DNA of 40,875 nt from Escherichia phage vB_EcoP-R1: the sequence record OQ703102.1. One strand, 5' to 3'. Shown one piece after another: positions 1 to 40,875 of this stretch. The notes beneath the pieces are model-generated. The model made no database searches and was not told the DNA's origin. It saw nothing but the letters and a program-made list of their open reading frames with translations. The position numbers and the translations under genes were made by a program. Position 1 is the first letter of the stretch. Every line of letters begins with the position of its first letter.

Positions 1-394
1 GACGGGTCAGAATGTCGCGATACAGCGCCTGACGGTGCGTTTCGTCATGGGTCGCCAGCACTTCGCCGATCTCTTTATCAATCAGCGGCTTGTCGGCTAA
101 ACCTTGCTGTGCCTGGAAGTCAGCGTGCGACGGTACGCGCATTGAACTCAGGAAGGCGTGTGGATCGTATGGCGCGCCCCAGGTGCGGTGGAAAATCATG
201 CCAAAACGACCGTCGCGCTGACGAGCATAGATACTGCTCTCTTCTTCGCCAATCAGCGAGACATCTGCGCCAATCTGGCGCATATCAGCCTGAATGATTT
301 CCGCCATCGATTTGCTTAACGCATCGGTGCCGATGAACGACAGTTCAATGCGCAGCGGCTGACCATTTTTCTCGCGGATGTCTTTGCCAGCAGG
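1..394 (-). CDS. nikA: Internal fragment of a periplasmic solute-binding protein (SBP family 5, nickel-binding NikA-like); truncated by the window edge and by the junction with phage DNA
   Basis: Minus-strand frame open across 1-394, translating ...PAGKDIREKNGQPLRIELSFIGTDALSK...RDGRFGMIFHRTWGAPYDPHAFLSSMRVPSHADFQAQQGLADKPLIDKEIGEVLATHDETHRQALYRDILTR, which matches my recollection of E. coli NikA; GC-rich enterobacterial codon usage; no start or stop inside the window. The six-frame track misses it because it runs off the window. Confidence 0.55.
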
Positions 395-461
395 ATCCAT
401 ACGGATTGGGCGTACAGCAAGTAATAAACTTTATCTTTCAATTGAATAGGAGAATTATCAT

Positions 462-17778: not shown

Positions 17779-17958
17779 ACCCCCGGTTACTTATAGTATT
17801 ACTGTAGTGAATATACATATGCAGACTTTATGCAAGACCTTAGGAGGCAGACTCCGAGTTCTTACCTAAGGCTTGCACCGATGGAAGGAGGGTGATATTA
17901 ATCATAATCCCTCCAATACAGATAGTCACCGACCATAGATACAGGAGGTATGTAGCAT

Positions 17959-18117
17959 ATGGCAAAGACCAAAGCTGTACTTAAAGCTCTGGCGACCAAT
18001 CGAGCTACATACAGGTTTCTTGCTGCTGTTCTACTTGCTGCTGGCGTTACTGCTGGAAGTAAGTGGGTCGGGTGGGTCGAGACTCTCGTATGTTCTCTGG
18101 TGTCTCAGTGTAATTAA
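17959..18117 (+). CDS. Small hydrophobic protein (gp19.5 position)
   Basis: 52 aa MAKTKAVLKALATNRATYRFLAAVLLAAGVTAGSKWVGWVETLVCSLVSQCN with RBS AGGAGGT 8 nt upstream; below the track size cutoff. Confidence 0.4.
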   Translation: MAKTKAVLKALATNRATYRFLAAVLLAAGVTAGSKWVGWVETLVCSLVSQCN

Positions 18118-18150
18118 CGCAATCATGGTAACGATTCATGAGCGGAAGAC

Positions 18151-18193
18151 CTAAGGTCAGTACGTGGATAAAGACTCACTCTACTGACCTTAG
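18151..18193 (+). repeat. Perfect 12-bp inverted repeat (CTAAGGTCAGTA / TACTGACCTTAG) forming a hairpin in the right-end unique region
   Basis: Read directly from the sequence; arms separated by 19 nt. Confidence 0.6.
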
Positions 18194-18355
18194 CTACTGT
18201 AGTCAAGGACTTTAGGTAACACCTTAATAGAAGCTCACCTAGGGTCATCCTACTTATTGGTCTATCCTAGTGTCGCCTGACCTACGGTCCTTGACCTACA
18301 GTAGCTGCCACCTACGGTCACTCGATGAGTTTTGGACCAAAAGTTTGAGACCACA

Positions 18356-23838: not shown

Positions 23839-23848
23839 GGAGAGAGTT

Positions 23849-24231: not shown

Positions 24232-24411
24232 ATGTATCAGAACACTATCAACTTCGAGCGCATCCGTGAACGTCAGCAGACTGAAGATTATATTCCGAAG
24301 GGCCGAAAGCTGAACAAGACCAAGCGGGGCGGCGGTGTCAAGGGTGCTTTCCGTAACGCTGAAGGCAAAGACTCTATGGTCAACCAAGAGAAGTATTTCG
24401 TAGGAGCATAA
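24232..24411 (+). CDS. 1.1: gp1.1-like small basic protein
   Basis: 59 aa MYQNTINFERIRERQQTEDYIPKGRKLNKTKRGGGVKGAF...; the KGRKLNKTKR stretch matches T7 gp1.1 as I recall it; below the track cutoff. Confidence 0.6.
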   Translation: MYQNTINFERIRERQQTEDYIPKGRKLNKTKRGGGVKGAFRNAEGKDSMVNQEKYFVGA

Positions 24412-24414
24412 GAC

Positions 24415-24663
24415 ATGAGCAGACGTTGGGTATTTGATGCGTCCACCAGCCAGTGGTCATCGTTAGGCCGGACACACCGCGAGCTGAGTGAGGCAGGACT
24501 TGAGGTCAGAATGGATGTCCTGCCGTGCTCCGGAAAGACTCTGGTCCTAATCATTGAAGCAGACGGGAAGCCTCTGGTATCCCGCGAGTTCACCGAACAC
24601 GAAATCTTTAGCTGTGAGCAATGGTGCTTGCAACAACTGAATGCTTATAGGAGCTGGAAATAA
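24415..24663 (+). CDS. gp1.2-position protein (possible dGTPase inhibitor homolog)
   Basis: 82 aa (T7 gp1.2 85 aa) directly upstream of ligase; assigned by position and size. Confidence 0.45.
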   Translation: MSRRWVFDASTSQWSSLGRTHRELSEAGLEVRMDVLPCSGKTLVLIIEADGKPLVSREFTEHEIFSCEQWCLQQLNAYRSWK

Positions 24664-25727
24664 TGACTACGACTATTAAAACTAACCCGCACCGCGCTGT
24701 AGATTACTCTGAGTCTGGCGTTAAGAAAGCGCTGGAAGCTGCCGGGTCGCTGGAAGCTGAAGTGAAATATGATGGTGTGCGGTTGAATATTCCGGTATTC
24801 CCTGATGGGCGAACTGAATGGTTAAGCCGTGAGTCAAAGACGCTTCCGGCCTTAGACCATTTGTCAACAGTTGGTCAGGACATCGGAGCGTGCCGTGCGT
24901 CCGACTGGCGATGGTTCCTGAAGCAAGCAGGACATGAAGTATCTGGCCTGATGATTGATGGCGAGGTGATGGTCAAGGGTGTAGACTTCAACACGTCCTC
25001 AGGTCTTATCCGAACCATGTGGTCTGACCGCAAGAACTACAAGTGGAACATGAACCCTAAGGCCGATATGGAGACCAAGAAGTCTAACAAGGTTCCATTC
25101 CAGATTAGCCATGAGTTCCTACAAGTGGTCGTCTACGGGGTCATCGACCTTAACGTCATCAACGACCCGAAAGCAGAAGGTCCTATCCATAGCGTCACAC
25201 GCCTGAAGGCCGAAGCTATCGTCCCTCTCCTCCAGAAATACTTCCCGGAAATCGACTGGGTTCTGTCTGAGTCACACACGGTCTATGACCTTGAGTCGCT
25301 CAACTCCCTGTACGAACAGAAGCGTCTGGAAGGACACGAGGGTCTGGTAGTCAAGGACCCGCTGGGTAAATATAAGCGTGGCAAGAAGTCAGGCATGTGG
25401 AAGATGAAGCCTGAGGAGACCATCGACGGGACCGTGTGTGGCCTAGTGTGGGGGACTCCTGGTAAGGCTAACGAAGGTAAGGTCATCGGCTTCGAGGTTC
25501 TGCTTGAGGATGGCATGGTGGTTAATGCTTGTGGTCTGACTGAAGAACAGAAGGACGAGTTTACGGAAGCCTGTAACACTGATACATATATTCTCGGTGG
25601 AATCAATCCATACGAAGGCTGGCAGTGTGAAGTACTCTTCATGGAGCGGTTCCCTGATGGCTCCCTTCGTCACCCCAGCTTCAAGTGCTGGCGTGGAACG
25701 GAAGATAACCCGACCGTTAAGAGCTAA
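24663..25727 (+). CDS. 1.3: ATP-dependent DNA ligase (gp1.3 homolog)
   Basis: 354 aa; adenylation motif KYDGVR (AEVKYDGVRLNI); conserved position. Confidence 0.93.
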   Translation: MTTTIKTNPHRAVDYSESGVKKALEAAGSLEAEVKYDGVRLNIPVFPDGRTEWLSRESKTLPALDHLSTVGQDIGACRASDWRWFLKQAGHEVSGLMIDGEVMVKGVDFNTSSGLIRTMWSDRKNYKWNMNPKADMETKKSNKVPFQISHEFLQVVVYGVIDLNVINDPKAEGPIHSVTRLKAEAIVPLLQKYFPEIDWVLSESHTVYDLESLNSLYEQKRLEGHEGLVVKDPLGKYKRGKKSGMWKMKPEETIDGTVCGLVWGTPGKANEGKVIGFEVLLEDGMVVNACGLTEEQKDEFTEACNTDTYILGGINPYEGWQCEVLFMERFPDGSLRHPSFKCWRGTEDNPTVKS

Positions 25728-25738
25728 CTAAACGTCAA

Positions 25739-25769
25739 CCCAGTGGTCTTCGGACTGCTGGGTTTCTTT
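25739..25769 (+). terminator. Intrinsic terminator after ligase (TE-like early terminator)
   Basis: 10-bp stem CCCAGTGGTC / GACTGCTGGG (two G-U pairs), loop TTCG, then TTTCTTT; same position as T7 TE. Confidence 0.6.
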
Positions 25770-25809
25770 GCTTATGCTAGCAAGCTATCGTTTGGGGAAC
25801 CAGCCTGAC

Positions 25810-25832
25810 CCTAAGCTATCACTATAGGACAA
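25810..25832 (+). promoter_or_regulatory. Phage RNAP promoter (phi1.5/1.6-like)
   Basis: CCTAAGCTATCACTATAGGACAA; +1 G at 25827. Confidence 0.75.
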
Positions 25833-25860
25833 CCATAACTTCGACCTAAGGAGGCCGACC

Positions 25861-26115
25861 ATGTTTAAGAACTTAATGTTCAACCGTTATTCCAATACCT
25901 TCCACCTGTCTCACAACCCGTTAGCTTGCATTAAGTGTAATGAGAAGCTGGGCTACTTCGGGAAGGCCGTTAAGCTGTCACCTACAGTCTTCGCTCTCAT
26001 TACTCCGGGCAAAGCTGAAGAGGCTCGCCAGAAGCGTGAGACAAATGTGCCAGTGGTCTACACTAAGTGGCCTCGAGTTCGTCTGTTCGTTGAGGTCGTG
26101 AAGGAGGTGTTCTGA
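25861..26115 (+). CDS. Hypothetical protein (gene 1.6 position)
   Basis: 84 aa (T7 gp1.6 88 aa); assigned by position. Confidence 0.45.
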   Translation: MFKNLMFNRYSNTFHLSHNPLACIKCNEKLGYFGKAVKLSPTVFALITPGKAEEARQKRETNVPVVYTKWPRVRLFVEVVKEVF

Positions 26116-26185
26116 TGGGATGTATAGCTTGCTTAGAGAAGGATGACCATTATCCACACACACCTGTAATAAAGGAGCTAACAAT

Positions 26186-26656
26186 ATGAACGCACTTGAA
26201 CAAGAGATTATCATTAAGTTGGTAGATAATAACGAAGGTCGCCCAGATGATTTGAATGGCTGCGGTATTTTCTGCCATAATGTCCCTTGCTACCTCTGTC
26301 CTGTAAATATCAATAAAAAGATAACCTTAGGTGAAATCCGAGCGATGGACATACGTAAGCCTAAACTGGAGAAACCAGAGGTAACTACTACAGACGACCA
26401 GCCTTACGCTAAGGCTATCGACGACGTACGCAAGCCGTCCCACTATCAGGTCTTTGACGGTGTGGAGTCCATTGAGATTATCGCTCGGTCCCTGACTGTC
26501 AGCGAGTTCCGTGGTTTCTGCATGGGTAACGTCCTGAAGTATCGACTCCGAGCTGGTAAGAAGTCCGAGCTGGCTACTATGGAGAAGGACCTAAACAAAG
26601 CAGCCTTCTATCAGGAGCTGTTCGACCTGCATAAAGGTAAGTGTTATGACGCGTGA
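26186..26656 (+). CDS. Hypothetical protein (gene 1.7 position)
   Basis: 156 aa; RBS AAGGAG; assigned by position. Confidence 0.45.
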   Translation: MNALEQEIIIKLVDNNEGRPDDLNGCGIFCHNVPCYLCPVNINKKITLGEIRAMDIRKPKLEKPEVTTTDDQPYAKAIDDVRKPSHYQVFDGVESIEIIARSLTVSEFRGFCMGNVLKYRLRAGKKSELATMEKDLNKAAFYQELFDLHKGKCYDA

Positions 26657-26873
26657 AGAACTTAAAGCTGTAGGGGTGAAGCGTAGAGCGCTCAGTTTTT
26701 ACCGAGCATACAAGGCGCTACGTAAGGGTATGTTAGCGTTCTCATTAGGACACAGTGAGTATTATGACTCTGACCTCCTACCGTTTGCTTATATGAAGAC
26801 TCCTAGTATGATTATTAGGGTAGAGGAGTATGACCATTCTGACGACTGTGTAATGGTGAACCGATATGCTTAA
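26646..26873 (+). CDS. Hypothetical protein (gene 1.8 position)
   Basis: 75 aa ORF overlapping neighbours. Confidence 0.4.
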   Translation: MTREELKAVGVKRRALSFYRAYKALRKGMLAFSLGHSEYYDSDLLPFAYMKTPSMIIRVEEYDHSDDCVMVNRYA

Positions 26874-26882
26874 ACCGAGTGA

Positions 26883-27080
26883 GTGGTGCCGGGAGATGTA
26901 CGAGAAGACTCTCAACCCGGACTACATTACGTTATACAACCAATGGAAGGAGCGTGGTTTATGAACCAAGACCAGATTAACTTTGTGTGTCAGCTTATTA
27001 AGGAGTTCGTGGACTTCACTGATTTATCCGAAGAGGAACTTGTTAAGCTGGAAGAGATTCTCGACAAGGAGGTTTTATGA
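26883..27080 (+). CDS. Small acidic hypothetical protein (start uncertain; likely ATG 26961)
   Basis: Track ORF begins at a GTG; an internal ATG at 26961 with RBS AAGGAG gives a 39-aa product [39 protein letters not shown]. Confidence 0.3.
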
Positions 27081-27235
27081 CTGAGGTTGAGAAGAAGTAC
27101 ATCGTGGAGCTTGAGGGACGCGTTCAGTCCTTCGAGGTTCCGTTGTACGCAAAGTCTCTTGAAGAGGCTACCCTGAAGTCCCAAGAGTATGAGGACGCTG
27201 GTTTTGTGGTCGGTCGGATTCGTCCTGAGGCCTAA
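27077..27235 (+). CDS. 2: Host RNA polymerase inhibitor (gp2 homolog)
   Basis: 52 aa [52 protein letters not shown]; resembles T7 gp2 (...[34 protein letters not shown]); below the track cutoff. Confidence 0.7.
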
Positions 27236-27253
27236 ACTATCACTGTAGGACAG
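27231..27253 (+). promoter_or_regulatory. Phage RNAP promoter variant (phi2.5-like), G at -3
   Basis: CCTAAACTATCACTGTAGGACAG; one mismatch to the family core (TATA to TGTA). Confidence 0.6.
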
Positions 27254-27292
27254 ACGTCCAGTTCGTAACTTTAAAATAGGAGATTCACACCA

Positions 27293-27991
27293 ATGGCTAA
27301 AGAGCAACTGAAGACTTTCACCACTCCGGTAGCTGGTATCGTTGAGCCTTACGCATGGCTGAACAAAGCAGACACTAAGTTTAACGAGCGTGGTGAGCAT
27401 AAGGTTAACCTGACATTCGACCTGAGCAGCCCGAAGGTCCGTAAGATGATTGATGTCTTACAGAAGATTCACGACGATGCGTATGCGAAAGCACTTGCAG
27501 ACCACGAGAAGAACCCACCTCAGGTTCAGCGTGGCAAGAAGCCTATTGAACCACGAGAAGGCGACATGCCGTGGATTGAGAATGGTGACGGTACTGTTAC
27601 CATGAAGTTTAAATGCTTCGCGTCTTACCTGAAGGATGGTAAGTCAGAGCCTATCGTATTACGGTTCTACGACACCGATGCTAAGTTAATCCGTGACGTC
27701 CCGAATATTGGCGCTGGCTCCAAACTGAAGGTCAAGTTTAAAGTCCTTCCGTTCAAGTGGAACGCTGCGACTGGTGCAAGCGTTAAGCTCCAGCTTGAGT
27801 CCTGCCTTCTGGTAGAACTGAAGGAGTGGAAAGGCGATGGTGCTGGTAGCGATGGTGGCTGGGGTGATGATGAAGACCTCGGTACTGGCTACAAAGCGTC
27901 AACCGATGGTGACTTCGGGTCTGACGACTTCAGTGACGATGGTTGTGATGGCGATGACGACTCCAACTCTGGTGGCGATTACGACTTCTAA
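27293..27991 (+). CDS. 2.5: Single-stranded DNA-binding protein (gp2.5 homolog)
   Basis: 232 aa, same length as T7 gp2.5; acidic C-terminal tail ending ...DDDSNSGGDYDF. Confidence 0.9.
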   Translation: MAKEQLKTFTTPVAGIVEPYAWLNKADTKFNERGEHKVNLTFDLSSPKVRKMIDVLQKIHDDAYAKALADHEKNPPQVQRGKKPIEPREGDMPWIENGDGTVTMKFKCFASYLKDGKSEPIVLRFYDTDAKLIRDVPNIGAGSKLKVKFKVLPFKWNAATGASVKLQLESCLLVELKEWKGDGAGSDGGWGDDEDLGTGYKASTDGDFGSDDFSDDGCDGDDDSNSGGDYDF

Positions 27992-28443
27992 TGGCCCAAT
28001 GGTCTGCAAAACGGGGGCACTCTGTGGGTGCCTACCGCTCTGGACTTGAAGCCAAGAACCAGCAGTGGCTGGAACAGAACGGCGTCAAAGCGGAGTACGA
28101 AAGCCATTATATCAACTATGTGATTCCGGCTTCCGACCACAAGTACACACCAGACTTTATCCTTCCTAACGGTATCATCGTGGAGACCAAAGGTATCTTC
28201 GATAGTGATGACCGTAAGAAGCACCTTCTGGTACGAGAACAGCACCCAGAGTTAGACATTCGGTTCGTGTTCTCAAGTTCCCGCTCCAAGTTATACAAAG
28301 GGTCTCCGACCACGTATGGCGCATGGTGCGAAAAGAACGGCTATAAGTATGCCGATAAGTTCATCCCGGTTGAGTGGCTTCGAGAGGCGACTGTACGTCT
28401 GCCTTCAGGTATCCTCATCCCCAAGAAGAAAGGAGTTAAGTGA
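27991..28443 (+). CDS. 3: Endonuclease I, Holliday junction resolvase (gp3 homolog)
   Basis: 150 aa; ...YVIPASDHKYTPDFILPNGIIVETKGIFDSDDRKKHLLVREQHPELDIRFVFSSSRSKLYKGSPTTYG... parallels T7 gp3. Confidence 0.92.
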   Translation: MAQWSAKRGHSVGAYRSGLEAKNQQWLEQNGVKAEYESHYINYVIPASDHKYTPDFILPNGIIVETKGIFDSDDRKKHLLVREQHPELDIRFVFSSSRSKLYKGSPTTYGAWCEKNGYKYADKFIPVEWLREATVRLPSGILIPKKKGVK

Positions 28444-28913
28444 TGACTCAGAAATATAGACTTAAAGTTAGCATCTACGGGTGGCCTAGAGGTACTATCG
28501 TCACAAAATGTGCGAAAGACCCTGTACCAGTGCCTGGACTTGTTCTGGTGGAATCCACTGAGCGTGGCCTCTACAAGCACGGAGCAGCGGGGCATAACAG
28601 TCAGCCTGACGGAATGTGGGGGGCATGGGTTTCAAATGAATATCTTGAGGAAATTGGAGAGGATAAACCTCAAGTCCTGCCAGCCTCAAGCGTCCCTCCT
28701 GTCACCGTTAAACGTGAAGTCCTGACCATCGACAAGATTGGTGTAGGCCAGACGTTCATCGTCCACGGGAAGCCTGAAGAAGTTTACGTGAAGATTAGCA
28801 ACTCACACGTCTTCAACCATAAGCGTCTCCAGATGCACACCACGGACGCACAGCGCTTCACCCAGCACCTGAATCTAGTGGTCGTAGAATTGGTGGTGTA
28901 CAATGGTAAGTAA
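28443..28913 (+). CDS. Hypothetical protein inserted between endonuclease I and amidase
   Basis: 156 aa from ATG 28443 (track start 28440 is a GTG); RBS AAAGGAG; no counterpart in T7, where gene 3.5 follows gene 3. Confidence 0.55.
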   Translation: MTQKYRLKVSIYGWPRGTIVTKCAKDPVPVPGLVLVESTERGLYKHGAAGHNSQPDGMWGAWVSNEYLEEIGEDKPQVLPASSVPPVTVKREVLTIDKIGVGQTFIVHGKPEEVYVKISNSHVFNHKRLQMHTTDAQRFTQHLNLVVVELVVYNGK

Positions 28914-29361
28914 GGTACAGTTCAACCCACGGTCCCGGACTGACGCTATCTTCGTTCACTGTTCGGCTACCAAGCCAGAGATGGACATCGGGGTAGAGAC
29001 CATCCGTATGTGGCACAAGCAGCAAGGATGGCTGGACGTAGGCTACCACTTTATCATCAAACGTGATGGCACTGTGGAAGAGGGTCGCCCGGTCAATGTC
29101 GTAGGGTCACACGTTAAGGACTGGAACTCCAAGTCCGTAGGCGTCTGCCTTGTAGGTGGAATTGACGCTAAGGGCAAGTTTGAAGCTAACTTCACTCCGG
29201 CCCAGATGAACTCACTGCGCACCAAGCTGGCTGACCTGAAGGCCCTGTATCCTCAGGCAGAAATAAAAGCACACCATGATGTAGCACCTAAGGCGTGTCC
29301 AAGTTTCGACTTGCAGCGCTGGCTATCTACCAATGAACTGGTAACTTCCGACCGTGGTTAA
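28903..29361 (+). CDS. 3.5: N-acetylmuramoyl-L-alanine amidase / T7 lysozyme (gp3.5 homolog)
   Basis: 152 aa; ...TDAIFVHCSATKP...WLDVGYHFIIKRDGTVEEGR...VGVCLVGGIDAKGKF.ANFTPAQM...AHHDVAPKACPSFDL.RW...NELVTSDRG nearly collinear with T7 gp3.5. Confidence 0.95.
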   Translation: MVSKVQFNPRSRTDAIFVHCSATKPEMDIGVETIRMWHKQQGWLDVGYHFIIKRDGTVEEGRPVNVVGSHVKDWNSKSVGVCLVGGIDAKGKFEANFTPAQMNSLRTKLADLKALYPQAEIKAHHDVAPKACPSFDLQRWLSTNELVTSDRG

Positions 29362-29385
29362 TAAACTCTAAAGGAGAACAACTCA

Positions 29386-29601
29386 ATGATTAAACTTATC
29401 GAATTTCTCGGTCGTCTGGTGGTGCGTGGTTATCGTCGTGCTGCGGTTATGGAACGAAAGGTAGAAAAGAAGACTGCTGACAGTGCGGCTGATGCAGCTG
29501 CTCTGGCTGACAAGCTGACCATCGCGTCACTGGAAGCTGGCATGAAGGCACGTCAAGCTGACACCAAAGCTGACCAGTTGGCTAAGTTCTTCAAAGCCTA
29601 A
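29386..29601 (+). CDS. Hypothetical small protein (gene 3.8 position, not HNH-like)
   Basis: 71 aa Ala/Lys-rich, predicted helical; assigned by position. Confidence 0.45.
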   Translation: MIKLIEFLGRLVVRGYRRAAVMERKVEKKTADSAADAAALADKLTIASLEAGMKARQADTKADQLAKFFKA

Positions 29602-29619
29602 ACTATCACCTTAGGGATG
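29597..29619 (+). promoter_or_regulatory. Phage RNAP promoter variant (phi4-like), two substitutions at -4/-3
   Basis: GCCTAAACTATCACCTTAGGGAT; upstream half conserved, TATA box changed to CTTA. Confidence 0.5.
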
Positions 29620-29666
29620 GGACAATAAGTCCTGTCCCTTTGTTCGCATTCGTGATTAAGGAGTGA

Positions 29667-31370
<1,704 letters not shown>

Positions 31371-31381
31371 GGAGGAGTACA

Positions 31382-31546
31382 TTGCTAAGAAAACTTAAAG
31401 CTCGCTACCATCGGTTCATGTACAAATGGTGGAGTGATGAAGCAACCTGCCTGTCCAACATTCTGGGAGACCAGAGGTTCGACTCTAAGGCTTGGAAGAA
31501 GGCTAACCGGAAGTTTATGTATCACTTCTTGCGTACAGACTTCTAG
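31382..31546 (+). CDS. Hypothetical small protein (gp4.3 position; start uncertain)
   Basis: Track ORF 31349..31546 overlaps the gene 4 end; a TTG at 31382 follows RBS AAGGAGG; an ATG at 31419 is the alternative. Confidence 0.35.
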
Positions 31547-31549
31547 GTC

Positions 31550-31592
31550 TAGACTCAAGGTCATTCACATCGAGTGGCCTTTATGATTAGAC
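31550..31592 (+). promoter_or_regulatory. RNase III-type processing hairpin (R4.7-like)
   Basis: TAGACTCAAGGTCATTCACATCGAGTGGCCTTTATGATTAG; third near-identical copy. Confidence 0.5.
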
Positions 31593-31614
31593 TTATAACT
31601 AAAGGAGAAGCAAT

Positions 31615-32046
31615 ATGAGGACTTGTAGTAGATGTGGCTCTACAAAGGAGTCCACTGAGTTCAGGAAGACAAATGGGTGGTGCATATCCTGTGTTCGTGA
31701 GGATAATAGGTCGCGATATCATCGAAACAAAGGTACAGAGGCCGGTGAGGCGCATCGCCTATCTGCCCGTAAGTCTTGGCTTAAGAAAGCCTATGGTCTC
31801 ACACTTGAGGAATATGACACTATGTTCGATAGTCAAAAGGGCAGATGCGCTATATGCTCAGACATTATCTTCAAGCATGGGTCTATTGAGAGTAAGAATA
31901 ATGTAGCCCACGTTGACCATTGCCATGACTCAGGTATTGTTAGGGGATTGCTATGTGGTACATGTAATAGCGCACTTGGTAAGTTCGGTGACAAGGTAGC
32001 CGTGCTTAGGGCTGCTATAACGTACTTGGAGAAATATAATGTTTAA
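31615..32046 (+). CDS. HNH endonuclease, endonuclease VII-type (putative homing endonuclease)
   Basis: 143 aa; Cys-rich N-terminus (CSRCGS...CISC) plus CAICSD...HVDHCHDSGIVRGLLCGTCNSALG, the typical endonuclease-VII/HNH zinc-binding core. Confidence 0.8.
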   Translation: MRTCSRCGSTKESTEFRKTNGWCISCVREDNRSRYHRNKGTEAGEAHRLSARKSWLKKAYGLTLEEYDTMFDSQKGRCAICSDIIFKHGSIESKNNVAHVDHCHDSGIVRGLLCGTCNSALGKFGDKVAVLRAAITYLEKYNV

Positions 32047-34210
32047 TCTCAACTCATTCTATGGCACAGATATAGAGACTGACGGTCTACTAGACACTGT
32101 GTCACAGTTCCATTGTGGTGTTATCATTAACGCTGGAACTCAGGCTACTGAGAAATATGGTGTTGCCCCTATGACTGGGCTGACAGGTGGATTCAAAGAG
32201 TACATAGACCGCATAGAATCTATTATGGCATCCACTGACGGTATGCTGGTTCTGCACAATGGTGTGAACTATGATATACCAGCCTTGAAAATACTGAAGA
32301 AGAAATACTTTGGTAAGAACCTAAATGTGAATAAGGGTCGAATTATTGATACCTTGGTACTTGGTCGCTTGATGTATCCAAACATTAAGTTCTCAGACAT
32401 GGGCGCGGTGAAAGCTGGTCGTCTGCCACCTAAGATGATGGGACGCCAGTCTCTTGAGGCTTGGGGCTATCGTCTCGGTGAGATGAAAGGTGAGTACAAA
32501 CACGATTACGTTGCCAAGTGCAAGGCTGAAGGTATCGAATATAAGGCTGGGGACGAATGGTTGTTCCCGTCTCAGGAGATGCTGGACTATAACGTTCAAG
32601 ACGTTGTGGTCACACTGGCGTTGTTCAAGAAGTTCCTGACTGACAAGTATTACTTCCAGTCTGAACAGTTTGCTTTCGACCAGATTTATGCGTTGCGTCT
32701 GGAACATGATGCTGCGTGGACCTGTGCGAAGATGGAGCGTAACGGCTATCCGATGAACACCGAGATGGTCGAAGGCTTATATCGTGAACTCACCGTCAAA
32801 CGTGCAGAGTTGTTGGACAAGCTGCGTTCGACTTTCGGTAGCTGGTATGCACCAAAGGGAGGCAAGGAGTTCTTCAAGCACCCACGGACAGGCAAGGACC
32901 TTCCGAAGTATCCGCGAGTCGTGTATCCTAGGGTCGGGTCAGTATTCAAGAAGCCGAAGAACAAAGCTCAACGCTTAGGTCTGGAGCCTTGCGAGTTCGA
33001 CTCACGAGACACGATGGAAGGAGCACCGTTCACGCCAATCACTTACGTTGAGTTTAATCCGGGAAGCGGAGACCACTTAGCGAAAGTCTTGATGGAGCGT
33101 GGTTGGGAGCCTGTGGACTTCACTGACACTGGGAAACCTGTAGTAGATGACGAGACGTTAGAACACGTTAAGCTACCAGACGCAGAGGCTCAGGCTTGCG
33201 TAGAGCTGGTCCGTGAGTATCTGGTAGTCCAGAAGCGCATCGGTCAGGCGGCTGAAGGTAAGAACGCATGGTTGAAACTTGTAGGTCCAGACGGACGTAT
33301 GCACGGTTCAATCAACCCATGCGGTGCAGTAACAGGACGTGCGACTCATAGTTCACCAAACATGGCTCAGGTCCCTGCTAACGGTGCTCCGTATGGTGAG
33401 ATTTGCCGTGGTGCTTTCGGTGCAGCTTGGAACAAGACGGATGGTAAGCCAGACCCTTGGATTCAAGTGGGTGTGGATGCTTCAGGTCTTGAGCTTCGTT
33501 GTCTGGGGAACCGAGCAGCTCCGTTTGATGGTGGTGCCTATGCGAAGACTGTGGTCGAAGGTGACATCCACTGGGCCAACGCAGTAAACGCTGGTTTAGC
33601 ACCTAACGTCCCACGCGATAAATCGAGCCACGACCATGATGCTTTCCGTAACAACGCTAAGACGTTCATCTATGCGTTCCTGTATGGTGCAGGGGCCGCT
33701 AAGATTGGACTGATAGTCGGCGGTGGTAAGAAGGAAGGTTCAGCTCTCATGAAGAAATTCATTGAGGGTACACCAGCCATCAAAGACCTCAGGGAAGCTG
33801 TGAGTAATACGTTAATCTCAGACTCTAAGTGGGTAGATGGTGAGAACATCGTTAAGTGGAAACGCCGTTGGCTGCGTGGACTTGACGGTCGCCGTATCCA
33901 CATCCGGTCGCCACACTCAGCACTGAACGCCTTACTTCAAGGTGACGGTGCGGTAGTCTGTAAGCACTGGATGGTACTGACGGAGAAGAAACTTGAGGAA
34001 GCTGGCTACGGTAATGGCTGGGATGGTGACTTTGCGCTAATGGCTTGGATTCACGACGAATTGCAGATTGCGTGTCGTACTCAGGAGATTGCCGAAGAAG
34101 TCGTCCGTATTGCACAAGAAGCAATGCGTGAGGTAGGACGTTTTTATAACTTCAAGTGTGATCTTGATACGGAGGGTAAGATTGGACCAACGTGGAAAGA
34201 GTGTCACTGA
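32039..34210 (+). CDS. 5: DNA polymerase, family A (gp5 homolog)
   Basis: 723 aa; ...SQFHCGVII, LEAWGYRLGEMKGEYK, DYNVQDVVVT, HPRTGK.LPKYPR, FKKPKNKAQR, GAVTGRATHS.PN.AQ.P, DASGLELRCLG, KTFIYAFLYGAG, KRRWL.GLDGR..H.RSPH.ALN.LLQ, GWDGDFA.MAW.HDE.Q parallel T7 gp5. Confidence 0.97.
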   Translation: MFNLNSFYGTDIETDGLLDTVSQFHCGVIINAGTQATEKYGVAPMTGLTGGFKEYIDRIESIMASTDGMLVLHNGVNYDIPALKILKKKYFGKNLNVNKGRIIDTLVLGRLMYPNIKFSDMGAVKAGRLPPKMMGRQSLEAWGYRLGEMKGEYKHDYVAKCKAEGIEYKAGDEWLFPSQEMLDYNVQDVVVTLALFKKFLTDKYYFQSEQFAFDQIYALRLEHDAAWTCAKMERNGYPMNTEMVEGLYRELTVKRAELLDKLRSTFGSWYAPKGGKEFFKHPRTGKDLPKYPRVVYPRVGSVFKKPKNKAQRLGLEPCEFDSRDTMEGAPFTPITYVEFNPGSGDHLAKVLMERGWEPVDFTDTGKPVVDDETLEHVKLPDAEAQACVELVREYLVVQKRIGQAAEGKNAWLKLVGPDGRMHGSINPCGAVTGRATHSSPNMAQVPANGAPYGEICRGAFGAAWNKTDGKPDPWIQVGVDASGLELRCLGNRAAPFDGGAYAKTVVEGDIHWANAVNAGLAPNVPRDKSSHDHDAFRNNAKTFIYAFLYGAGAAKIGLIVGGGKKEGSALMKKFIEGTPAIKDLREAVSNTLISDSKWVDGENIVKWKRRWLRGLDGRRIHIRSPHSALNALLQGDGAVVCKHWMVLTEKKLEEAGYGNGWDGDFALMAWIHDELQIACRTQEIAEEVVRIAQEAMREVGRFYNFKCDLDTEGKIGPTWKECH

Positions 34211-34241
34211 CCCTCGAACCAAGACCTTGCGCTTCCACACA

Positions 34242-34535
34242 ATGCCTACTGGATGTATCGTCTGCGTGTCCCACAAGAGGAACCAAGATGGATACTTCCG
34301 GTATTCTATGGGAAGCTACAGGAAGGGCAACAAGTTCGCCTTCATGTTTCACAGATGGGTGTGGGAACAGAAGCGCGGACCTATACCGGATGGCTATGAG
34401 ATAGACCATTTGTGTTTGAATCGTGGGTGCTGTAACGTAGAACATCTACAATGTATTCCAAAGCGTGATCACGTCATCAAGACGAACCGTGAGCGCAAAC
34501 TTATTAAGAAGGAGAAGACTAATGGCTATTACTAA
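34242..34535 (+). CDS. HNH endonuclease (gene 5.3 position)
   Basis: 97 aa from ATG 34242 (track ORF 34158..34535 starts inside DNAP); ...GYFRYSMGSYRKGNKFAFMFHRWVWEQKRGPIPDGYEIDHLCLNRGCCNVEHLQCIPKRDH...N is a classic HNH core. Confidence 0.75.
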   Translation: MPTGCIVCVSHKRNQDGYFRYSMGSYRKGNKFAFMFHRWVWEQKRGPIPDGYEIDHLCLNRGCCNVEHLQCIPKRDHVIKTNRERKLIKKEKTNGYY

Positions 34536-34806
34536 ACGTATTCGTGTAAGTTTCGACCTGAAGATGGTTGTCAGCTCAAAGGAAGAAGATACCATGTGTC
34601 GCCAACTGGCTGAGATGACTAAAGCCTACGCTGAGGGTGAGAAGCTGGATGGACTTCAGGTGGCTATGGTCAAAGCAGCAATCGAGTCAGGCCCTGAGTC
34701 TGCCCTTGAAATTGCCCTCAAGAAGACCATCAAGGAGGAGCTGGTAGACGCCTTTGGTGATGACCAGTTCGGAGTATCTAACCTGCGATTCGAGGTCAAG
34801 CAATGA
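34522..34806 (+). CDS. 5.5: gp5.5-position protein
   Basis: 94 aa from ATG 34522 (MAITKRIRVSFDLK...); N-terminus resembles T7 gp5.5 as I recall it; start overlaps the HNH gene end. Confidence 0.55.
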   Translation: MAITKRIRVSFDLKMVVSSKEEDTMCRQLAEMTKAYAEGEKLDGLQVAMVKAAIESGPESALEIALKKTIKEELVDAFGDDQFGVSNLRFEVKQ

Positions 34807-35012
34807 GTGAATACTTACGGGTCCTAGCGGCCCTTAAGTCCTGCCCGAAGACCTTCCAGTCTAACTATGTGCGCAACAACGCTGCACTTGTGGCTGAGGC
34901 TGCGAGTCGTGGACATCTAAGCTGCCTGTCTATGGATGGGCGTAACAACGGTGCGTGGGAAATTACCGCTGCTGGCACCAAGTTCCTGAACCAACACGGA
35001 GGCTGTCTATGA
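34803..35012 (+). CDS. 5.7: gp5.7-position protein
   Basis: 69 aa, same length as T7 gp5.7; ...KSCPKTFQSNYVRNNAALVAEAASRGH...; assigned by position and size. Confidence 0.6.
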   Translation: MSEYLRVLAALKSCPKTFQSNYVRNNAALVAEAASRGHLSCLSMDGRNNGAWEITAAGTKFLNQHGGCL

Positions 35013-35458
35013 AGATACCTGAAAGTCTGAAAGAGCTGGTCCTTGACATGGGTGAGTGCGAGAAGGAGCACCGCAAGTACGCTGAGTTCTACGCATCTTG
35101 GTCATACACCTTGACAGAGAAGGACGTTGAGTCATACACCGAGTCTCCCGCTGAGGCTTATGAGTGGCGTCCATTCATCGGACTGACCATCGTAGCTAGC
35201 GGTATGTGGGATGACAGATACGGTTCAGAGGTAAACGACTGGGACGTGTGCCGCCAAGTTGAGAAGGAGACTGAGATGTCTTCAAACTTCTGGAACCTGA
35301 TGTCACACCTAAACTCAGAGGACAACGACAAGGCCCATGAGTTCGCCAACAAATGGCTGAAGCCTGAGGTGACTCTCGAACGTATAGAGGAGCCGAAAGT
35401 GCCCTTGATGCCATATGTAGTCGCTATGGCTACAGGAGGTCTGGACGATGGGTGCTGA
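35009..35458 (+). CDS. Acidic hypothetical protein at the gene 5.9 position (much longer than T7 gp5.9)
   Basis: 149 aa from ATG 35009 (overlaps the 5.7 stop as ATGA); Glu/Asp-rich; T7 gp5.9 is 52 aa. Confidence 0.5.
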   Translation: MKIPESLKELVLDMGECEKEHRKYAEFYASWSYTLTEKDVESYTESPAEAYEWRPFIGLTIVASGMWDDRYGSEVNDWDVCRQVEKETEMSSNFWNLMSHLNSEDNDKAHEFANKWLKPEVTLERIEEPKVPLMPYVVAMATGGLDDGC

Positions 35459-36317
35459 GAAGAAGATAGCTCTTGTTCTTGATGGCGATTACCTAGTATT
35501 CTCTTCTATGGCTGCTGCCGAGGACGAGACAGACTGGGGTGATGACATCTGGACCCTTATCTGCGACCATGAGAAGGCTCGCCGTATCCTTGAGAACACC
35601 ATCGCTGAAATCGTTAAGAAGCGCAAGGCGTGGAAAGACGCTAAGATTGTGATGTGCTTCACCGACGATTACAACTGGCGTAAGGACGTACTTCCTACCT
35701 ATAAGGCTAACCGTAAGGGTTCTCGCAAGCCTGTAGGTTACAAGAAGTTCGTAGCCGAAGTGATGGCTGACCCACGGTTCAACAGCTTCCTGCGTCCCAC
35801 GCTTGAGGGTGATGACTGTATGGGTATCATCGGGACCAGACCTCAGATTGTCGGATGTGACCATGCGGTTCTGGTGTCCTGTGATAAGGACTTCAAGACC
35901 ATACCGAACTGTGAGTTCTTCTGGTTGACCACTGGTGAAATCCTGAGTCATACGACTGCTGAGGCAGACTACTGGCACATGGAGCAGACCATCAAGGGCG
36001 ATACTACAGATGGCTACGGCGGGATTCCGGGGATGGGTGAGGACACCACTCGTGCGTTCCTTGACGAGCCGTACTACTTCGTTCAGGAGAGCCGTGAGCT
36101 TAAGACTGGTAAGAACAAAGGCCAGATTAAGACTGAGTGGAAGAAGTATCCGAAGCGTGAAGACATGACGCTGTGGGACTGCATGGTTACACTGGCTGCT
36201 AAGGCTGGCATGACCGAGGAGGAACTTCTGGTCCAAGCTCAGGTCGCTCGTATTTGTCGAGCCTCCGACTACGACCCTAAGTCCAAGGAGGTCATCCTAT
36301 GGACACCATCCATGTAA
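35448..36317 (+). CDS. 6: 5-prime to 3-prime exonuclease (gp6 homolog)
   Basis: 289 aa; ...WRKDVLPTYKANRK...KPVGY..F......LEGDD.MG.I......VSCDKDFKTIPNCEFFW.TTG.IL...DYWH...QTIKGD.TDGY.GI.G...KTGKNKGQ...TLWDC....AKAGMTEE parallel T7 gp6. Confidence 0.92.
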   Translation: MGAEKKIALVLDGDYLVFSSMAAAEDETDWGDDIWTLICDHEKARRILENTIAEIVKKRKAWKDAKIVMCFTDDYNWRKDVLPTYKANRKGSRKPVGYKKFVAEVMADPRFNSFLRPTLEGDDCMGIIGTRPQIVGCDHAVLVSCDKDFKTIPNCEFFWLTTGEILSHTTAEADYWHMEQTIKGDTTDGYGGIPGMGEDTTRAFLDEPYYFVQESRELKTGKNKGQIKTEWKKYPKREDMTLWDCMVTLAAKAGMTEEELLVQAQVARICRASDYDPKSKEVILWTPSM

Positions 36318-36391
36318 TTTACTGGGTCGGACTTCTGGCCCTTTACTGCATGTACAAGTGGTTCGGGTCGAACAACCGCCCTAAACACTGA
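36299..36391 (+). CDS. Putative small hydrophobic peptide (gene 6.3 position)
   Basis: 30 aa MDTIHVIYWVGLLALYCMYKWFGSNNRPKH; RBS AAGGAGG 7 nt upstream; overlaps the 3-prime end of gene 6. Confidence 0.3.
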   Translation: MDTIHVIYWVGLLALYCMYKWFGSNNRPKH

Positions 36392-36443
36392 GTCTAGCCG
36401 ATAGTCATATCCTATCAATCCAACAGTCATCCATAGGTGAAAC

Positions 36444-36466
36444 ACTAAACTATCACTATAGGGACT
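36444..36466 (+). promoter_or_regulatory. Phage RNAP promoter (phi6.5-like)
   Basis: CACTAAACTATCACTATAGGGAC; +1 G at 36461; followed by an inverted-repeat leader (GACTTTAGGACC...GACTTTAGTC). Confidence 0.8.
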
Positions 36467-36527
36467 TTAGGACCTAAGATATGACTATAAGATAGACTTT
36501 AGTCTTAACTTAAAGAGGAGATTCAAG

Positions 36528-36800
36528 ATGGCTATTACTGCTATTGAAAACGTTGTTAAGCAGTTACAGGAAGAAAGACTTGATGTCCCGAACATCTCAC
36601 AGTCTGCTATCCAGTTCCTGCACGTATTGTTCAACGCAAGCTACGCTGAGAAGATGGGAGCTATCAGTCTCCTCAAGCAGCAAGGCTACAGCGATGCGTT
36701 CATTGCCGGGTTCATCAAGGGTCTCCAGTATTGTTCTGACACTCTCGACTCTGCGATTGCTATGCGTCGTGAGCTGAAAGATACCGTTCAGTTTGATTAA
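36528..36800 (+). CDS. gp6.5-position protein
   Basis: 90 aa; RBS AAAGAGGAG; assigned by position. Confidence 0.5.
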   Translation: MAITAIENVVKQLQEERLDVPNISQSAIQFLHVLFNASYAEKMGAISLLKQQGYSDAFIAGFIKGLQYCSDTLDSAIAMRRELKDTVQFD

Positions 36801-36814
36801 CTGTAGGAGGGACT

Positions 36815-37039
36815 ATGTGTTTCAGTCCGAAGATTAGCACTCCGAAGCCTTCGGTCCAAGCACCTGAACCAGCACCTCTGAGTGAGGAAGTTGCGTCAGT
36901 TGACATCGGGGCTGAATCAGATGTGGACACCAACGAGACCCAAGGTATCAAAGACCTGAAGGTCAAGAAGGAGTCTGCACCTAAAGATAAATCGTCAGTT
37001 AGCCGCGCCATGCGAGCCTCTGGCGTCAACATGGGGTAA
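36815..37039 (+). CDS. 6.7: gp6.7-like virion protein
   Basis: 74 aa; N-terminal MCFSPKI.TPK and EPAPL motif resemble T7 gp6.7. Confidence 0.7.
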   Translation: MCFSPKISTPKPSVQAPEPAPLSEEVASVDIGAESDVDTNETQGIKDLKVKKESAPKDKSSVSRAMRASGVNMG

Positions 37040-37043
37040 GACA

Positions 37044-37448
37044 ATGCTACCATATCTCAACTCACGCGAAGGTCGCCATATGTGCGCTTGTCGCCTCTGG
37101 GAAGACGGGCAGTCTAACTTCAAGTCATTCGAGGACTTCAAGGCTCATACTTACCGTATGGCTGACGAGTTCGACGGTGAAGAATACACAATCTACGATG
37201 CCTCAGGTCAACCAGTAGCGTATCTCTACATGCTGGCTACCGCATCTTGGCACCGACCGACTCCCGGTCTTGACCTTTCAATAGTCGCTATTCGTCGTGA
37301 CTCGCAGTCCTCCCGCAAGGTTCTTGAGACTGTCAGACACATCATAGACGAAGAGTGCAAGCGTTGGGGTCTTGGCTGGTATTCTCGTGTCAAGCATGTT
37401 TCCGGGTCGGTAGACATCGTAACAACTAAGGAGATTAATCGTGGGTAA
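37044..37448 (+). CDS. gp7-position protein
   Basis: 134 aa (T7 gp7 133 aa); assigned by position and size. Confidence 0.5.
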   Translation: MLPYLNSREGRHMCACRLWEDGQSNFKSFEDFKAHTYRMADEFDGEEYTIYDASGQPVAYLYMLATASWHRPTPGLDLSIVAIRRDSQSSRKVLETVRHIIDEECKRWGLGWYSRVKHVSGSVDIVTTKEINRG

Positions 37449-37689
37449 ATCAATCAGTAAGGCCTTCAAGAAAGTGGTGAAAAGTACGTTAGGGACCGTT
37501 GGTCTTGGCTCTGATGACGCGCCTAAGGTTGTTGAGGCTAAGACCCCAGCAGCACCAGTGGAAGTACCGAACGACAAAGTGGAGGATGTGGATACTGAAG
37601 CAACCGCATCTGATGAGAAGAAAGTGAAGCGTTCCGGTAAGCGTAGCCTTCAGGTCTCTCGCACCTCTGGTGGCGGTATTTCTATATGA
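37441..37689 (+). CDS. 7.3: gp7.3-like tail/virion protein
   Basis: 82 aa, Lys/Ala/Val-rich, ends ...RSLQVSRTSGGGISI (T7 gp7.3 ends similarly as I recall); GTG start. Confidence 0.65.
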   Translation: MGKSISKAFKKVVKSTLGTVGLGSDDAPKVVEAKTPAAPVEVPNDKVEDVDTEATASDEKKVKRSGKRSLQVSRTSGGGISI

Positions 37690-38102
37690 CAGGGTGCATC
37701 GAGTGGAAGTGGGCCAAATCCTCAGCAGGATACGGGCAGAAGCGTATAGACGGTAAGTTAGTGTATATGCACCGACTCGCTTACGCCGATGCACATGGGC
37801 CAATACCAGACGGAATGCTCGTCCGTCATAAGTGTGATAATCCAGCATGTTTTAACGTAAACCACTTAGAGTTAGGAACTCAGCGTGATAACATGCAGGA
37901 CGCCTCAAAGCGTGGTCGAGTCAATAAAACCAAAATGGCTAGAGGTGAGGACCAAGGGTTATCGGTTTTAACAGAAGACCTTGTTCGAGAAATCCGCAAG
38001 TCAACAGTAGGTTGTACAACACTGGCTCGTGAGCTGGGCGTTAGCAAGTCTACAGTTTTGCGGGTTCGCCAAGGTAAAACATGGAGGCACGTAGATGGCT
38101 GA
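37686..38102 (+). CDS. HNH endonuclease with C-terminal helix-turn-helix (gene 7.7 position)
   Basis: 138 aa; ...GYGQKRIDGKLVYMHRLAYADAHGPIPDGMLVRHKCDNPACFNVNHLELGTQRDN... HNH core; C-terminal ...TLARELGVSKSTVLRVRQGKTW is HTH-like. Confidence 0.75.
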   Translation: MTGCIEWKWAKSSAGYGQKRIDGKLVYMHRLAYADAHGPIPDGMLVRHKCDNPACFNVNHLELGTQRDNMQDASKRGRVNKTKMARGEDQGLSVLTEDLVREIRKSTVGCTTLARELGVSKSTVLRVRQGKTWRHVDG

Positions 38103-39663
38103 ACGTGAAGGATTTGCCGCTGAAGGCGCGAAGTCAGTTTATGATAGGCTGAAGAACGGACGACAACCTTACGAGACCAGAGCACAGAACTGCGCTGCCG
38201 TGACCATACCGTCGCTATTTCCGAAGGAATCTGATAACTCCTCGACGGAATATTCAACTCCGTGGCAAGCTGTAGGTGCTCGCTGTTTGAACAACTTGGC
38301 TGCAAAGCTGATGTTGGCATTATTCCCTCAGTCACCGTGGATGCGACTGACAGTCTCCGAATATGAGGCCAAGACCTTGAGTCAGGACTCAGAGGCTGCT
38401 GCTCGTGTTGACGAAGGGCTGGCTATGGTCGAGCGTGTGTTGATGGCCTACATGGAGACCAACAGTTTCCGTGTGCCATTGTTCGAAGCTCTGAAGCAGC
38501 TTATCGTCTCCGGTAACTGTCTGCTTTACATTCCAGAGCCTGAACAGGGTACTTACAGTCCTATGCGAATGTACCGCTTAGTGTCATACGTTGTTCAACG
38601 TGATGCTTTCGGTAATATCTTGCAGATTGTGACTCTCGACAAGGTAGCGTTTAGTGCTCTACCGGAAGACGTGAAGTCACAACTCAACGCAGACGACTAT
38701 GAGCCTGACACAGAGCTGGAAGTTTATACGCACATCTACCGTCAAGACGACGAGTATCTACGTTATGAGGAAGTGGAAGGCATTGAGGTAGCAGGGACCG
38801 ATGGTTCCTACCCACTGACTGCATGTCCATACATCCCGGTACGAATGGTTCGACTGGATGGTGAAGACTATGGTCGTTCTTACTGCGAGGAGTATCTGGG
38901 TGACCTGAACTCGCTGGAGACGATTACAGAAGCTATCACCAAAATGGCTAAGGTAGCCTCCAAGGTGGTGGGCCTCGTTAACCCGAACGGTATCACGCAA
39001 CCTCGTCGGCTGAACAAGGCGGCTACAGGTGAGTTCGTTGCCGGTCGCGTTGAGGACATCAACTTCCTGCAACTGACTAAGGGTCAGGACTTTACGATTG
39101 CCAAGTCGGTGGCTGACGCTATCGAGCAACGTTTAGGCTGGGCCTTCCTTCTTAATAGTGCTGTTCAGCGCAACGCCGAGCGAGTCACTGCTGAAGAGAT
39201 TCGTTATGTTGCTGGCGAACTGGAGGCGACCTTAGGTGGCGTGTACTCAGTACAATCCCAAGAGCTTCAGTTACCTATCGTCCGTGTGCTGATGAACCAA
39301 CTTCAGTCTGCTGGCATGATTCCTGACCTTCCGAAAGAAGCGGTAGAGCCTACTGTCTCCACTGGTCTGGAAGCGTTAGGTCGTGGTCAGGACTTGGAGA
39401 AGCTAACTCAGGCGGTTAACATGATGACTGGTCTTCAGCCGCTATCTCAGGACCCGGACATCAACTTGCCGACCCTTAAGCTACGACTCCTGAACGCTCT
39501 GGGTATCGACACCGCCGGCCTTCTGCTGACTCAGGACGAGAAGATGCAACGTATTGCTGAACAATCCGCTCAAGGAGCTGTGGTCAACGGTGCGTCTGCT
39601 GCTGGTGCTAACATGGGTGCTGCTGTAGGTCAGGGAGCTGGTGAGGACATGGCTCAAGCCTAA
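38095..39663 (+). CDS. 8: Portal / head-to-tail connector protein (gp8 homolog)
   Basis: 522 aa (T7 gp8 536 aa); conserved position between 7.7 and scaffold. Confidence 0.93.
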   Translation: MAEREGFAAEGAKSVYDRLKNGRQPYETRAQNCAAVTIPSLFPKESDNSSTEYSTPWQAVGARCLNNLAAKLMLALFPQSPWMRLTVSEYEAKTLSQDSEAAARVDEGLAMVERVLMAYMETNSFRVPLFEALKQLIVSGNCLLYIPEPEQGTYSPMRMYRLVSYVVQRDAFGNILQIVTLDKVAFSALPEDVKSQLNADDYEPDTELEVYTHIYRQDDEYLRYEEVEGIEVAGTDGSYPLTACPYIPVRMVRLDGEDYGRSYCEEYLGDLNSLETITEAITKMAKVASKVVGLVNPNGITQPRRLNKAATGEFVAGRVEDINFLQLTKGQDFTIAKSVADAIEQRLGWAFLLNSAVQRNAERVTAEEIRYVAGELEATLGGVYSVQSQELQLPIVRVLMNQLQSAGMIPDLPKEAVEPTVSTGLEALGRGQDLEKLTQAVNMMTGLQPLSQDPDINLPTLKLRLLNALGIDTAGLLLTQDEKMQRIAEQSAQGAVVNGASAAGANMGAAVGQGAGEDMAQA

Positions 39664-39681
39664 ACTATCACTATAGGAACT
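39659..39681 (+). promoter_or_regulatory. Phage RNAP promoter (phi9-like)
   Basis: CCTAAACTATCACTATAGGAACT overlapping the portal stop; +1 G at 39676. Confidence 0.8.
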
Positions 39682-39760
39682 TAGACAAGATTCACAAAGC
39701 ATTAGGCCGGGTGAGACTCCCGGTCGGTTCCTATCATCAACTTAAAAGGAGAATGACTCA

Positions 39761-40605
39761 ATGTCTCAATCAGTTTATGCCGAGTTCGGCGTTAGCTCTA
39801 ATGCAATCACTGGTTCCGTTGAGGACCTGAACGAACACCAGAAGTCTATGCTTGAACAGGACGTAGCTGTTCGTGATGGCGACGACGCTATTACTTTCAA
39901 GCAACTGGAAGCCGAAAACGAAGAGGCGACCGAAGAAGACGAGAACGTCGAAGAGACTGAAGGTGAAGAAGACCACGAGTCCGATGACGAAGAGTCTGAG
40001 ACCGATGGTGAGCAGCCTGAGTTCATCGAACTGGGTGATGCACCAAAAGAGCTGACCGAAAGTGTCACCGCTCTGGATGAAAACGAAGCTGCATTCGACG
40101 ACATGGTGTCTTCTGCTGTAGAAGCTGGCAAGGTCACTGCTGATGAAATTACCGCTATCAAGGCTGAATACGCCAAGGACGGTAAGCTGTCTGACGCATC
40201 CTACGCTAAGTTGCAGGAAGCAGGTTACACCAAGCGTTTCGTAGATTCGTTTGTCCGTGGTCAGGAAGCTCTTGCTGAACAGTATGCTGCTGGTGTGGTT
40301 CGCTACGCTGGTGGTGCTGAACAGTTTAATCGCATCCTGTCACACCTTGAGTCCAACGACCCGTCAACTCGTGAAGCACTGGAAGCTGCTATCGTTCGTA
40401 AGGACATTGCGACTACCAAAGCTCTGCTGAATCTGGCTGGCAAGACTCTGGGTAAAGCTGTAGGTGTTAAACCTCAGCGAACCATCACCACTCAGGCTAA
40501 ACCTGTGGTCGCACCTAAGGCTCCTCAGACCGAAGCATTCAGCTCCAAGGCTGACATGATTAAGGCTATGAGTGACCCGCGATACCTGCGTGACGCTAAG
40601 TACAC
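39761..40605 (+). CDS. 9: Scaffolding protein (gp9 homolog), 3-prime truncated and fused in-frame to non-phage sequence
   Basis: MSQSVYAEFGVSSNAITGSVEDL...VRDGDDAI..., acidic EEDE-rich region, ...FVRGQEALAEQY...AMSDPRY parallel T7 gp9; no stop codon, and after about 40605 the translation no longer looks like gp9. Confidence 0.85.
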
Positions 40606-40843
40606 GGTGTTTAGTTTTCAGGCTGGCGCACTGGCAGGTGTGCAAATTGTTTCACAAGCTGCAAAACGCAGTGCCGATGGCGAGCTGCTGTTAGCGACCC
40701 GTAACCGCTTGAGTAGTGTTGTTCCACTGTCGCCAGACGCCTGGCAAATGTTGAGCGCGCCGTTGCGCCAGCCGGGCATTGTGGCTTTGCGGGAATATTT
40801 ACGCCAGCGTCCCCCCGCCTGCATACGACCACTCAACCAGGTC
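40606..40843 (+). other. Unidentified non-phage, GC-rich coding-like fragment (probable bacterial chromosomal DNA) joined in-frame to gene 9
   Basis: Open + frame ...LAGVQIVSQAAKRSADGELLLATRNRLSSVVPLSPDAWQMLSAPLRQPGIVALREYLRQRP... with GC content clearly higher than the phage; I cannot assign it from sequence alone. Confidence 0.3.
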
Positions 40844-40875
40844 AGATCGGAAGAGCGTCGTGTAGGGAAAGAGTG
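40844..40875 (+). other. Illumina TruSeq adapter sequence (AGATCGGAAGAGCGTCGTGTAGGGAAAGAGTG)
   Basis: Exact 32-nt match to the standard Illumina adapter read-through sequence at the extreme 3-prime end of the window. Confidence 0.95.

Follow-up and report, generated by a model that had tools for sequence, protein, structure and literature searches.

The right end of the genome record of Escherichia phage vB_EcoP-R1 (OQ703102.1) raises the question of whether a phage scaffold gene is fused to a second, foreign gene. The window, which is the whole stretch of 40,875 nucleotides that was analysed, closes with a gp9 homolog, the scaffold (capsid assembly) gene, whose frame starts with the ATG at 39761 and contains 371 stop-free codons up to the last base. 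The absence of a stop codon, reported in the initial annotation, is confirmed over this entire length. The extension of gp9 at the right end is very probably an artefact of assembly or library preparation rather than a genuine fusion protein. The features that bear on this question are listed in Table 1.

Table 1. Positions of the phage, host and adapter features in the window.
Feature	Position	Strand	Basis or remark
E. coli chromosomal nikA fragment (nickel ABC transporter substrate-binding protein)	1..394	-	megablast, 99.7%
Left junction base A, fits neither parent	395		nikA C; five phage relatives G
Phage resumes: 3' part of gene 10 leader with ribosome binding site	396..461	+	alignment to relatives
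Major capsid gene (gene 10), 349 aa	462-1511		ORF, 66 nt after phage resumes
Terminal repeat, single copy	17865..18265	+	ZG49 mapping; natural genome ends here
gp9 homolog, scaffold (capsid assembly) gene, truncated	39761..40606	+	282 of 294 codons, without stop codon
Right junction base G, fits neither parent	40607		phage relatives A; yehQ C
E. coli chromosomal yehQ fragment (SWIM zinc finger family protein)	40608..40843	+	megablast, 99.2%
Illumina TruSeq universal adapter, reverse complement	40844..40875	+	32 of 32 nt exact; sole copy in window

The translated gp9 homolog matches the Pfam family PF05396 (Phage_T7_Capsid) with 217.6 bits (E = 2.4e-64, profile positions 2-178 of 188). The curated cut-off of this family is 27.1 bits, and the gp9 homolog is thus a member. 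It also matches PHROG 1052 ('head assembly') with E = 1e-90 over positions 2-281 of 293. Like the T7 gp9 scaffolding protein (PF05396, PHROG 1052), residues 1-282 are those of a normal Kayfunavirus scaffold protein. Upstream of the gene, the portal gene occupies 38095-39663 and is followed by a phage promoter at 39664. Positions 40300-40606 (307 nt) have 100% DNA identity to the phages IME177, pO2 and PDP21P1.

Kayfunavirus identity stops at 40606, after ...AMSDPRYLRDAKYT (...RDAKYT). Among 50,697 phage records, more than 200 genomes of the Kayfunavirus type match positions 38000-40875 by megablast, and every alignment ends at 40606-40609. The comparison of gp9 length with close relatives that had been suggested gives a uniform result, as gp9 is 885 nt long (294 codons plus stop) in IME177, pO2, PDP21P1, ST0223 and ZG49. 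In these close relatives, the normal 294-aa gp9 is followed by the promoter and then by gene 10. The normal 3' end is present in five of the five inspected relatives and in 122 relatives by BLAST. Unlike the gp9 of the inspected relatives, which ends in MEVRAKVAASSL plus stop, the window gp9 is without these last 12 residues and the stop. The initial annotation had noted the loss of the last gp9 codons and of the promoter that should come next, and the comparison with the five relatives upholds this: a full-length gp9, with its C-terminus and stop and then the promoter and major capsid gene, is not found, and 12 codons, the stop and the promoter are gone. A literature search on the C-terminus of T7 gp9 and its function turned up nothing usable. 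In the IME177 record (MZ398247.1), the scaffold gene is labelled 'head-to-tail connector protein', which is a misannotation.

An HNH homing-endonuclease gene (138 aa; Pfam HNH_3, PHROG 59) is located at 37686-38102, between the gp7.3-like and portal genes, and overlaps the portal start by 8 nt. It is absent in ST0223 and in ZG49, where position 19195 jumps to 19211, and it is present in CR44b (gene 7.7) and EFA-1. This distribution suggests a mobile insertion that some members of the genus have and others lack. EFA-1 (MT350292.1), which is labelled an Enterococcus faecalis phage, is 94% identical to the window over gp7.7-gp9, and this makes its host label doubtful.

Past 40606, the gp9 frame stays open for 79 more codons (40607-40843) and then for approximately 10 codons of adapter. 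The 79 codons had been described as compositionally different, and they are: GC content is 57.8%, versus 49.8% in the phage part, and only 0.2% of 237-nt phage windows reach this value. The BLASTN search of the right end proposed in the initial annotation was run on 40600-40843 and identifies E. coli yehQ, with matches in 5336 of 5426 complete E. coli genomes and a best identity of 99.2% over 239 nt. The best matches include E. coli SK1144, where the locus is annotated yehQ, and the piece is accordingly assigned to this gene. The fragment corresponds to approximately codons 390-468 of the 667-codon yehQ and lies on the sense strand, in phase with gp9. When 40610-40843 (78 codons) is translated in the gp9 phase, 77 of 78 residues are those of native YehQ, and the other two phases on the same strand contain three stops each. 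One private G to T change, at 40641, replaces Gly with Val in YehQ.

The 79 codons are open because yehQ is joined on its sense strand and in its own reading frame. The probability of an in-frame continuation by chance had been given as one in three. Chance does suffice, but the native phase and the sense strand of yehQ together correspond to approximately one in six, and at this frequency no selection is needed. Compared with E. coli YehQ (667 aa), the piece in the window is an internal fragment of approximately 12%, without a start or end of its own, and it therefore does not constitute the acquisition of a functional domain.

The yehQ allele is not evenly distributed by identity among the matching E. 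coli records. Only 556 are at least 99% identical, and 4171 are at 90-95%. The host thus falls in one particular lineage, with SK1144, SA186, AR_0089 and strains like them, and by these identity bands alone it is outside the majority. In the PHROGs database, phrog_29006, a 'viral' family of unknown function, matches 40607-40843 at E = 1e-46, and its 667 profile positions equal the length of YehQ. This family most likely entered PHROGs via the host flanks (yehQ/yehV) in the VT1-Sakai prophage record AP000400.1. The match most likely represents host flanking DNA in a prophage record and is no evidence of phage origin.

The adapter adjoins the yehQ piece directly, and the contig ends there. The terminal sequence, AGATCGGAAGAGCGTCGTGTAGGGAAAGAGTG, is identical to the start of the reverse-complemented TruSeq universal adapter over 32 nt. 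Unrelated phage records, from Bifidobacterium, Klebsiella, Enterococcus and other hosts, also contain this 32-33-mer, and this corroborates its identity as an adapter. Its presence is explained by a short insert that was read through to the adapter. Assembly of a real sequence with good coverage would have continued past the adapter reads, and a contig that ends at the adapter thus points to an artefact.

Among deposited phage genomes, the adapter string is also found in PQ571273.1 (260-292), KT254133.1 (59296-59328), OU509537.1 (58534-58566), OR360270.1 (1-32), MW748999.1 (78677-78708) and PQ462667.1 (7574-7605). Some copies are at record ends, and two are inside annotated genes ('putative tail fiber protein' and 'endonuclease'). 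For those records, these strings suggest incomplete adapter trimming or chimeric joining.

The layout of the right end recurs in mirror image at the left end of the window: host DNA, one orphan base and then phage. The nikA match over 1-394 is present in all 5426 genomes searched (99.7% identity) and contains one private mismatch, the G at position 35. The best strains are the same for the nikA and yehQ pieces (SK1144, SA186, 4/4, AR_0089 and others), which fits DNA from a single host strain. In SK1144, nikA is located at 272 kb on the plus strand and yehQ at 1.761 Mb on the minus strand. With 1.49 Mb between the two loci and opposite orientations, an integration site or one continuous host insert is ruled out. 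Capture of a host gene as a unit bounded on both sides by phage DNA is likewise not what the window contains, as yehQ runs into the adapter. The view that a chimeric join is more likely than a fusion protein, already taken in the initial annotation, agrees with yehQ and the adapter at the right end and nikA at the left.

Between the host fragments, positions 396-40606 are a circularly permuted Kayfunavirus (T7-like) genome that is opened between gp9 and gene 10. By local BLAST, colinearity of the phage part with ZG49 extends around the full circle, from ZG49 position 21820 to 40291 and then from 1 to 21721. ZG49 has an exact 401-bp terminal repeat. ZG49 1-792 maps to window positions 17865-18653 and ZG49 37969-40291 to 15943-18265, and the repeat therefore maps once, in the middle of the window. 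This rules out the contig ends as natural genome ends.

Where the phage resumes, 396-461 was aligned to ST0223, IME177, pO2, PDP21P1 and ZG49. Compared with these five relatives, 98-99 bp are missing from the window: the 12 gp9 codons and stop, the promoter CTAAACTATCACTATAGGGAGACC and approximately 42 nt of the gene 10 leader. The phage sequence stops approximately 45 nt before the gene 10 promoter and resumes approximately 42 nt after it. In the real phage, gp9 almost certainly ends with the usual 12 codons and is followed by the usual promoter and gene 10 leader.

The promoter core ACTATCACTATAGG (zero to two mismatches) is present in 10 copies, all on the plus strand, at 4887, 12163, 17761, 20824, 24144, 25815, 27236, 29602, 36449 and 39664, and 0.23 copies are expected by chance. 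An eleventh promoter, before gene 10, lies in the missing segment. The repeated promoter is insufficient as a cause of the break. Between the missing segment and the rest of the window, exact repeats reach no more than 22 nt, and a repeat-induced break is feasible only at very small k.

The same join was not found elsewhere. According to the initial annotation, related phages with the same C-terminal extension on gp9 would speak against a chimeric join, and none appeared: 0 of 833 matching phage records cover both halves of the gp9-yehQ junction peptide. A 35-mer across the right junction is not found in viral, metagenome or genome contig collections, and a 32-mer across the left junction is not found in viral or genome contig collections. 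For gp8 and the major capsid protein of the window, there is likewise no identical protein on record. In the phage collection, yehQ DNA is confined to one record, that of the VT1-Sakai prophage, whose sequence extends into the host flanks. Neither the related phages nor the independent contigs searched thus contain the join that is expected of a real gene fusion.

These searches bear on the reading in which the window represents a viable variant, with the 98-99 bp gp9-gene 10 spacer swapped for a yehQ...nikA patchwork and a true gp9-YehQ fusion. We regard such a variant as extremely unlikely. The join is in no relative or public contig searched, the contig stops in adapter and does not run through the supposed insert, and the two host loci are 1.49 Mb apart in opposite orientation. 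Both host flanks do point into the same gap on the circular map, as the variant would require, and yehQ continues the gp9 frame with its sense strand; however, an in-phase, same-strand join has a one in six chance and makes selection unnecessary. The fusion reading is further disfavoured because it would cost the phage both the conserved C-terminus of gp9 and the promoter of gene 10.

The junction sequences are informative about the type of join. At the right junction, the window reads ACG-G-TG-TTTAG, the phage relatives read ACG-A-TG-GAAG and yehQ reads CGG-C-TG-TTTAG. The G at 40606 and the TG at 40608-40609 are common to both parents, and the crossover is therefore ambiguous within 40606-40609. 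A natural phage variant with G at 40607 (ACG GTG GAA), with which the join would have a clean 2-nt microhomology, was considered and rejected. This base in an otherwise normal gp9 end has an exact match in 0 of 122 relatives, and the best match is 98.8% with one mismatch in 85. At the left junction, nikA extends to 394 and the phage begins at 396, with zero overlap. Proximity ligation of the Hi-C/3C type was also rejected. GGATCC/GATC is present at the left junction, but GATC is in neither parent there, and there is none at the right junction.

The shared sequence is too short at the right junction (G.TG) and absent at the left, and a physically chimeric read is therefore required. It is highly improbable that no chimeric molecule was present and that the assembler mis-joined phage and host contigs via a shared k-mer or by scaffolding. 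Contig ends are a typical site for such errors and host DNA is clearly in the data set, but phage and host share four positions at most on the right side and zero on the left, which is far under any usable k. In addition, the window is without N runs or gaps, and the one base per junction that belongs to neither parent is not created by a graph join.

Both joins appear blunt or near-blunt, like ligation or template-switch chimeras. Blunt joins with an orphan base are a product of libraries made by end repair, A-tailing and ligation, and polymerase template switching can have the same outcome. We infer that the join arose in vitro, by fragment-to-fragment ligation or template switching. Few reads would support the junctions, because the adapter follows directly after the host piece and each host fragment has one private mismatch. 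The private mismatches (40641 T and 35 G), which none of the best-matching complete genomes shares, are compatible with uncorrected errors in low-coverage reads, and they could also be real variants of a host strain outside the collection.

The right end is accordingly best explained as follows. A near-complete Kayfunavirus genome would have been assembled from an adapter-ligation Illumina library that contained a little E. coli host DNA. At 40606/40607, the assembler would have followed one or a few chimeric molecules, each composed of a phage fragment ending in gp9 and a fragment of yehQ. The insert would have been short, so that sequencing reached the adapter, where the contig stopped. By chance, yehQ is joined on its sense strand and in phase, which extends the gp9 frame without a stop. 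Under this mechanism, the phage makes no gp9-YehQ protein.

The window shares several properties with other Illumina phage assemblies that contain chimeric library molecules or adapter read-through. The joins of host DNA to high-copy phage DNA are of the same kind, blunt or with 0-3 nt of overlap, the contig terminus is the same TruSeq sequence, and the permutation by collapse of the terminal repeat is the same. The window differs from these assemblies in that both of its ends are chimeric and are 98-99 bp apart, which is more orderly than random. The counter-point to the artefact is thus that two independent phage-host chimeras are this close together and that the intact connecting sequence was unused by the assembler. 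The proximity of the chimeric ends is an odd coincidence that goes beyond a purely random chimera model. One possibility is a local coverage dropout combined with greedy extension through rare chimeric reads. Another possibility is a mixed phage population that differs in the gp9-gene 10 spacer.

The same proximity would be accommodated by rare, non-heritable hybrids that formed in vivo, when replicating phage DNA broke near the strong late promoter of gene 10 and its ends were joined, by phage ligase or microhomology-mediated end joining, to pieces of a host chromosome under attack by phage nucleases; the hybrids were then captured in the library. T7-like phages cut the DNA of their host into pieces and code for a ligase, and a ligase gene is annotated in ZG49. 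Both junctions are within the 98-99 bp that flank the gene 10 promoter, as would fit a break hotspot, and both partners are chromosomal DNA of apparently one host strain. The short G.TG overlap at the right junction is also in keeping with this origin, but the left junction is without microhomology. The adapter after 237 nt of host DNA, together with the private mismatches, points to very few reads, and in vivo hybrids would leave the assembler's lack of the abundant intact path unaccounted for. The sequence has nothing that separates an in vivo from an in vitro join, and on this balance we consider in vivo hybrids improbable. The more specific proposal, that the gene 10 promoter as the strongest late promoter is a hotspot of in vivo breaks and illegitimate phage-host recombination, is very improbable.

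An artefact of assembly or library preparation, the preferred reading, is of a known kind, and the phage part of the record is an ordinary Kayfunavirus. The finding matters chiefly for quality control, which calls for trimming the record to 396-40606 and for filling in the missing 98-99 bp to close the contig. Left untrimmed, the record would add adapter sequence to databases, along with a spurious gp9-YehQ "fusion protein" and spurious "host genes in a lytic phage". The spread of such errors is exemplified by host yehQ, which is already in PHROGs (phrog_29006), and by the adapter string in several deposited phage genomes. For the biology of these phages, the junctions would be of interest only in the unlikely event that they reflect breaks which concentrate at the gene 10 promoter in vivo.
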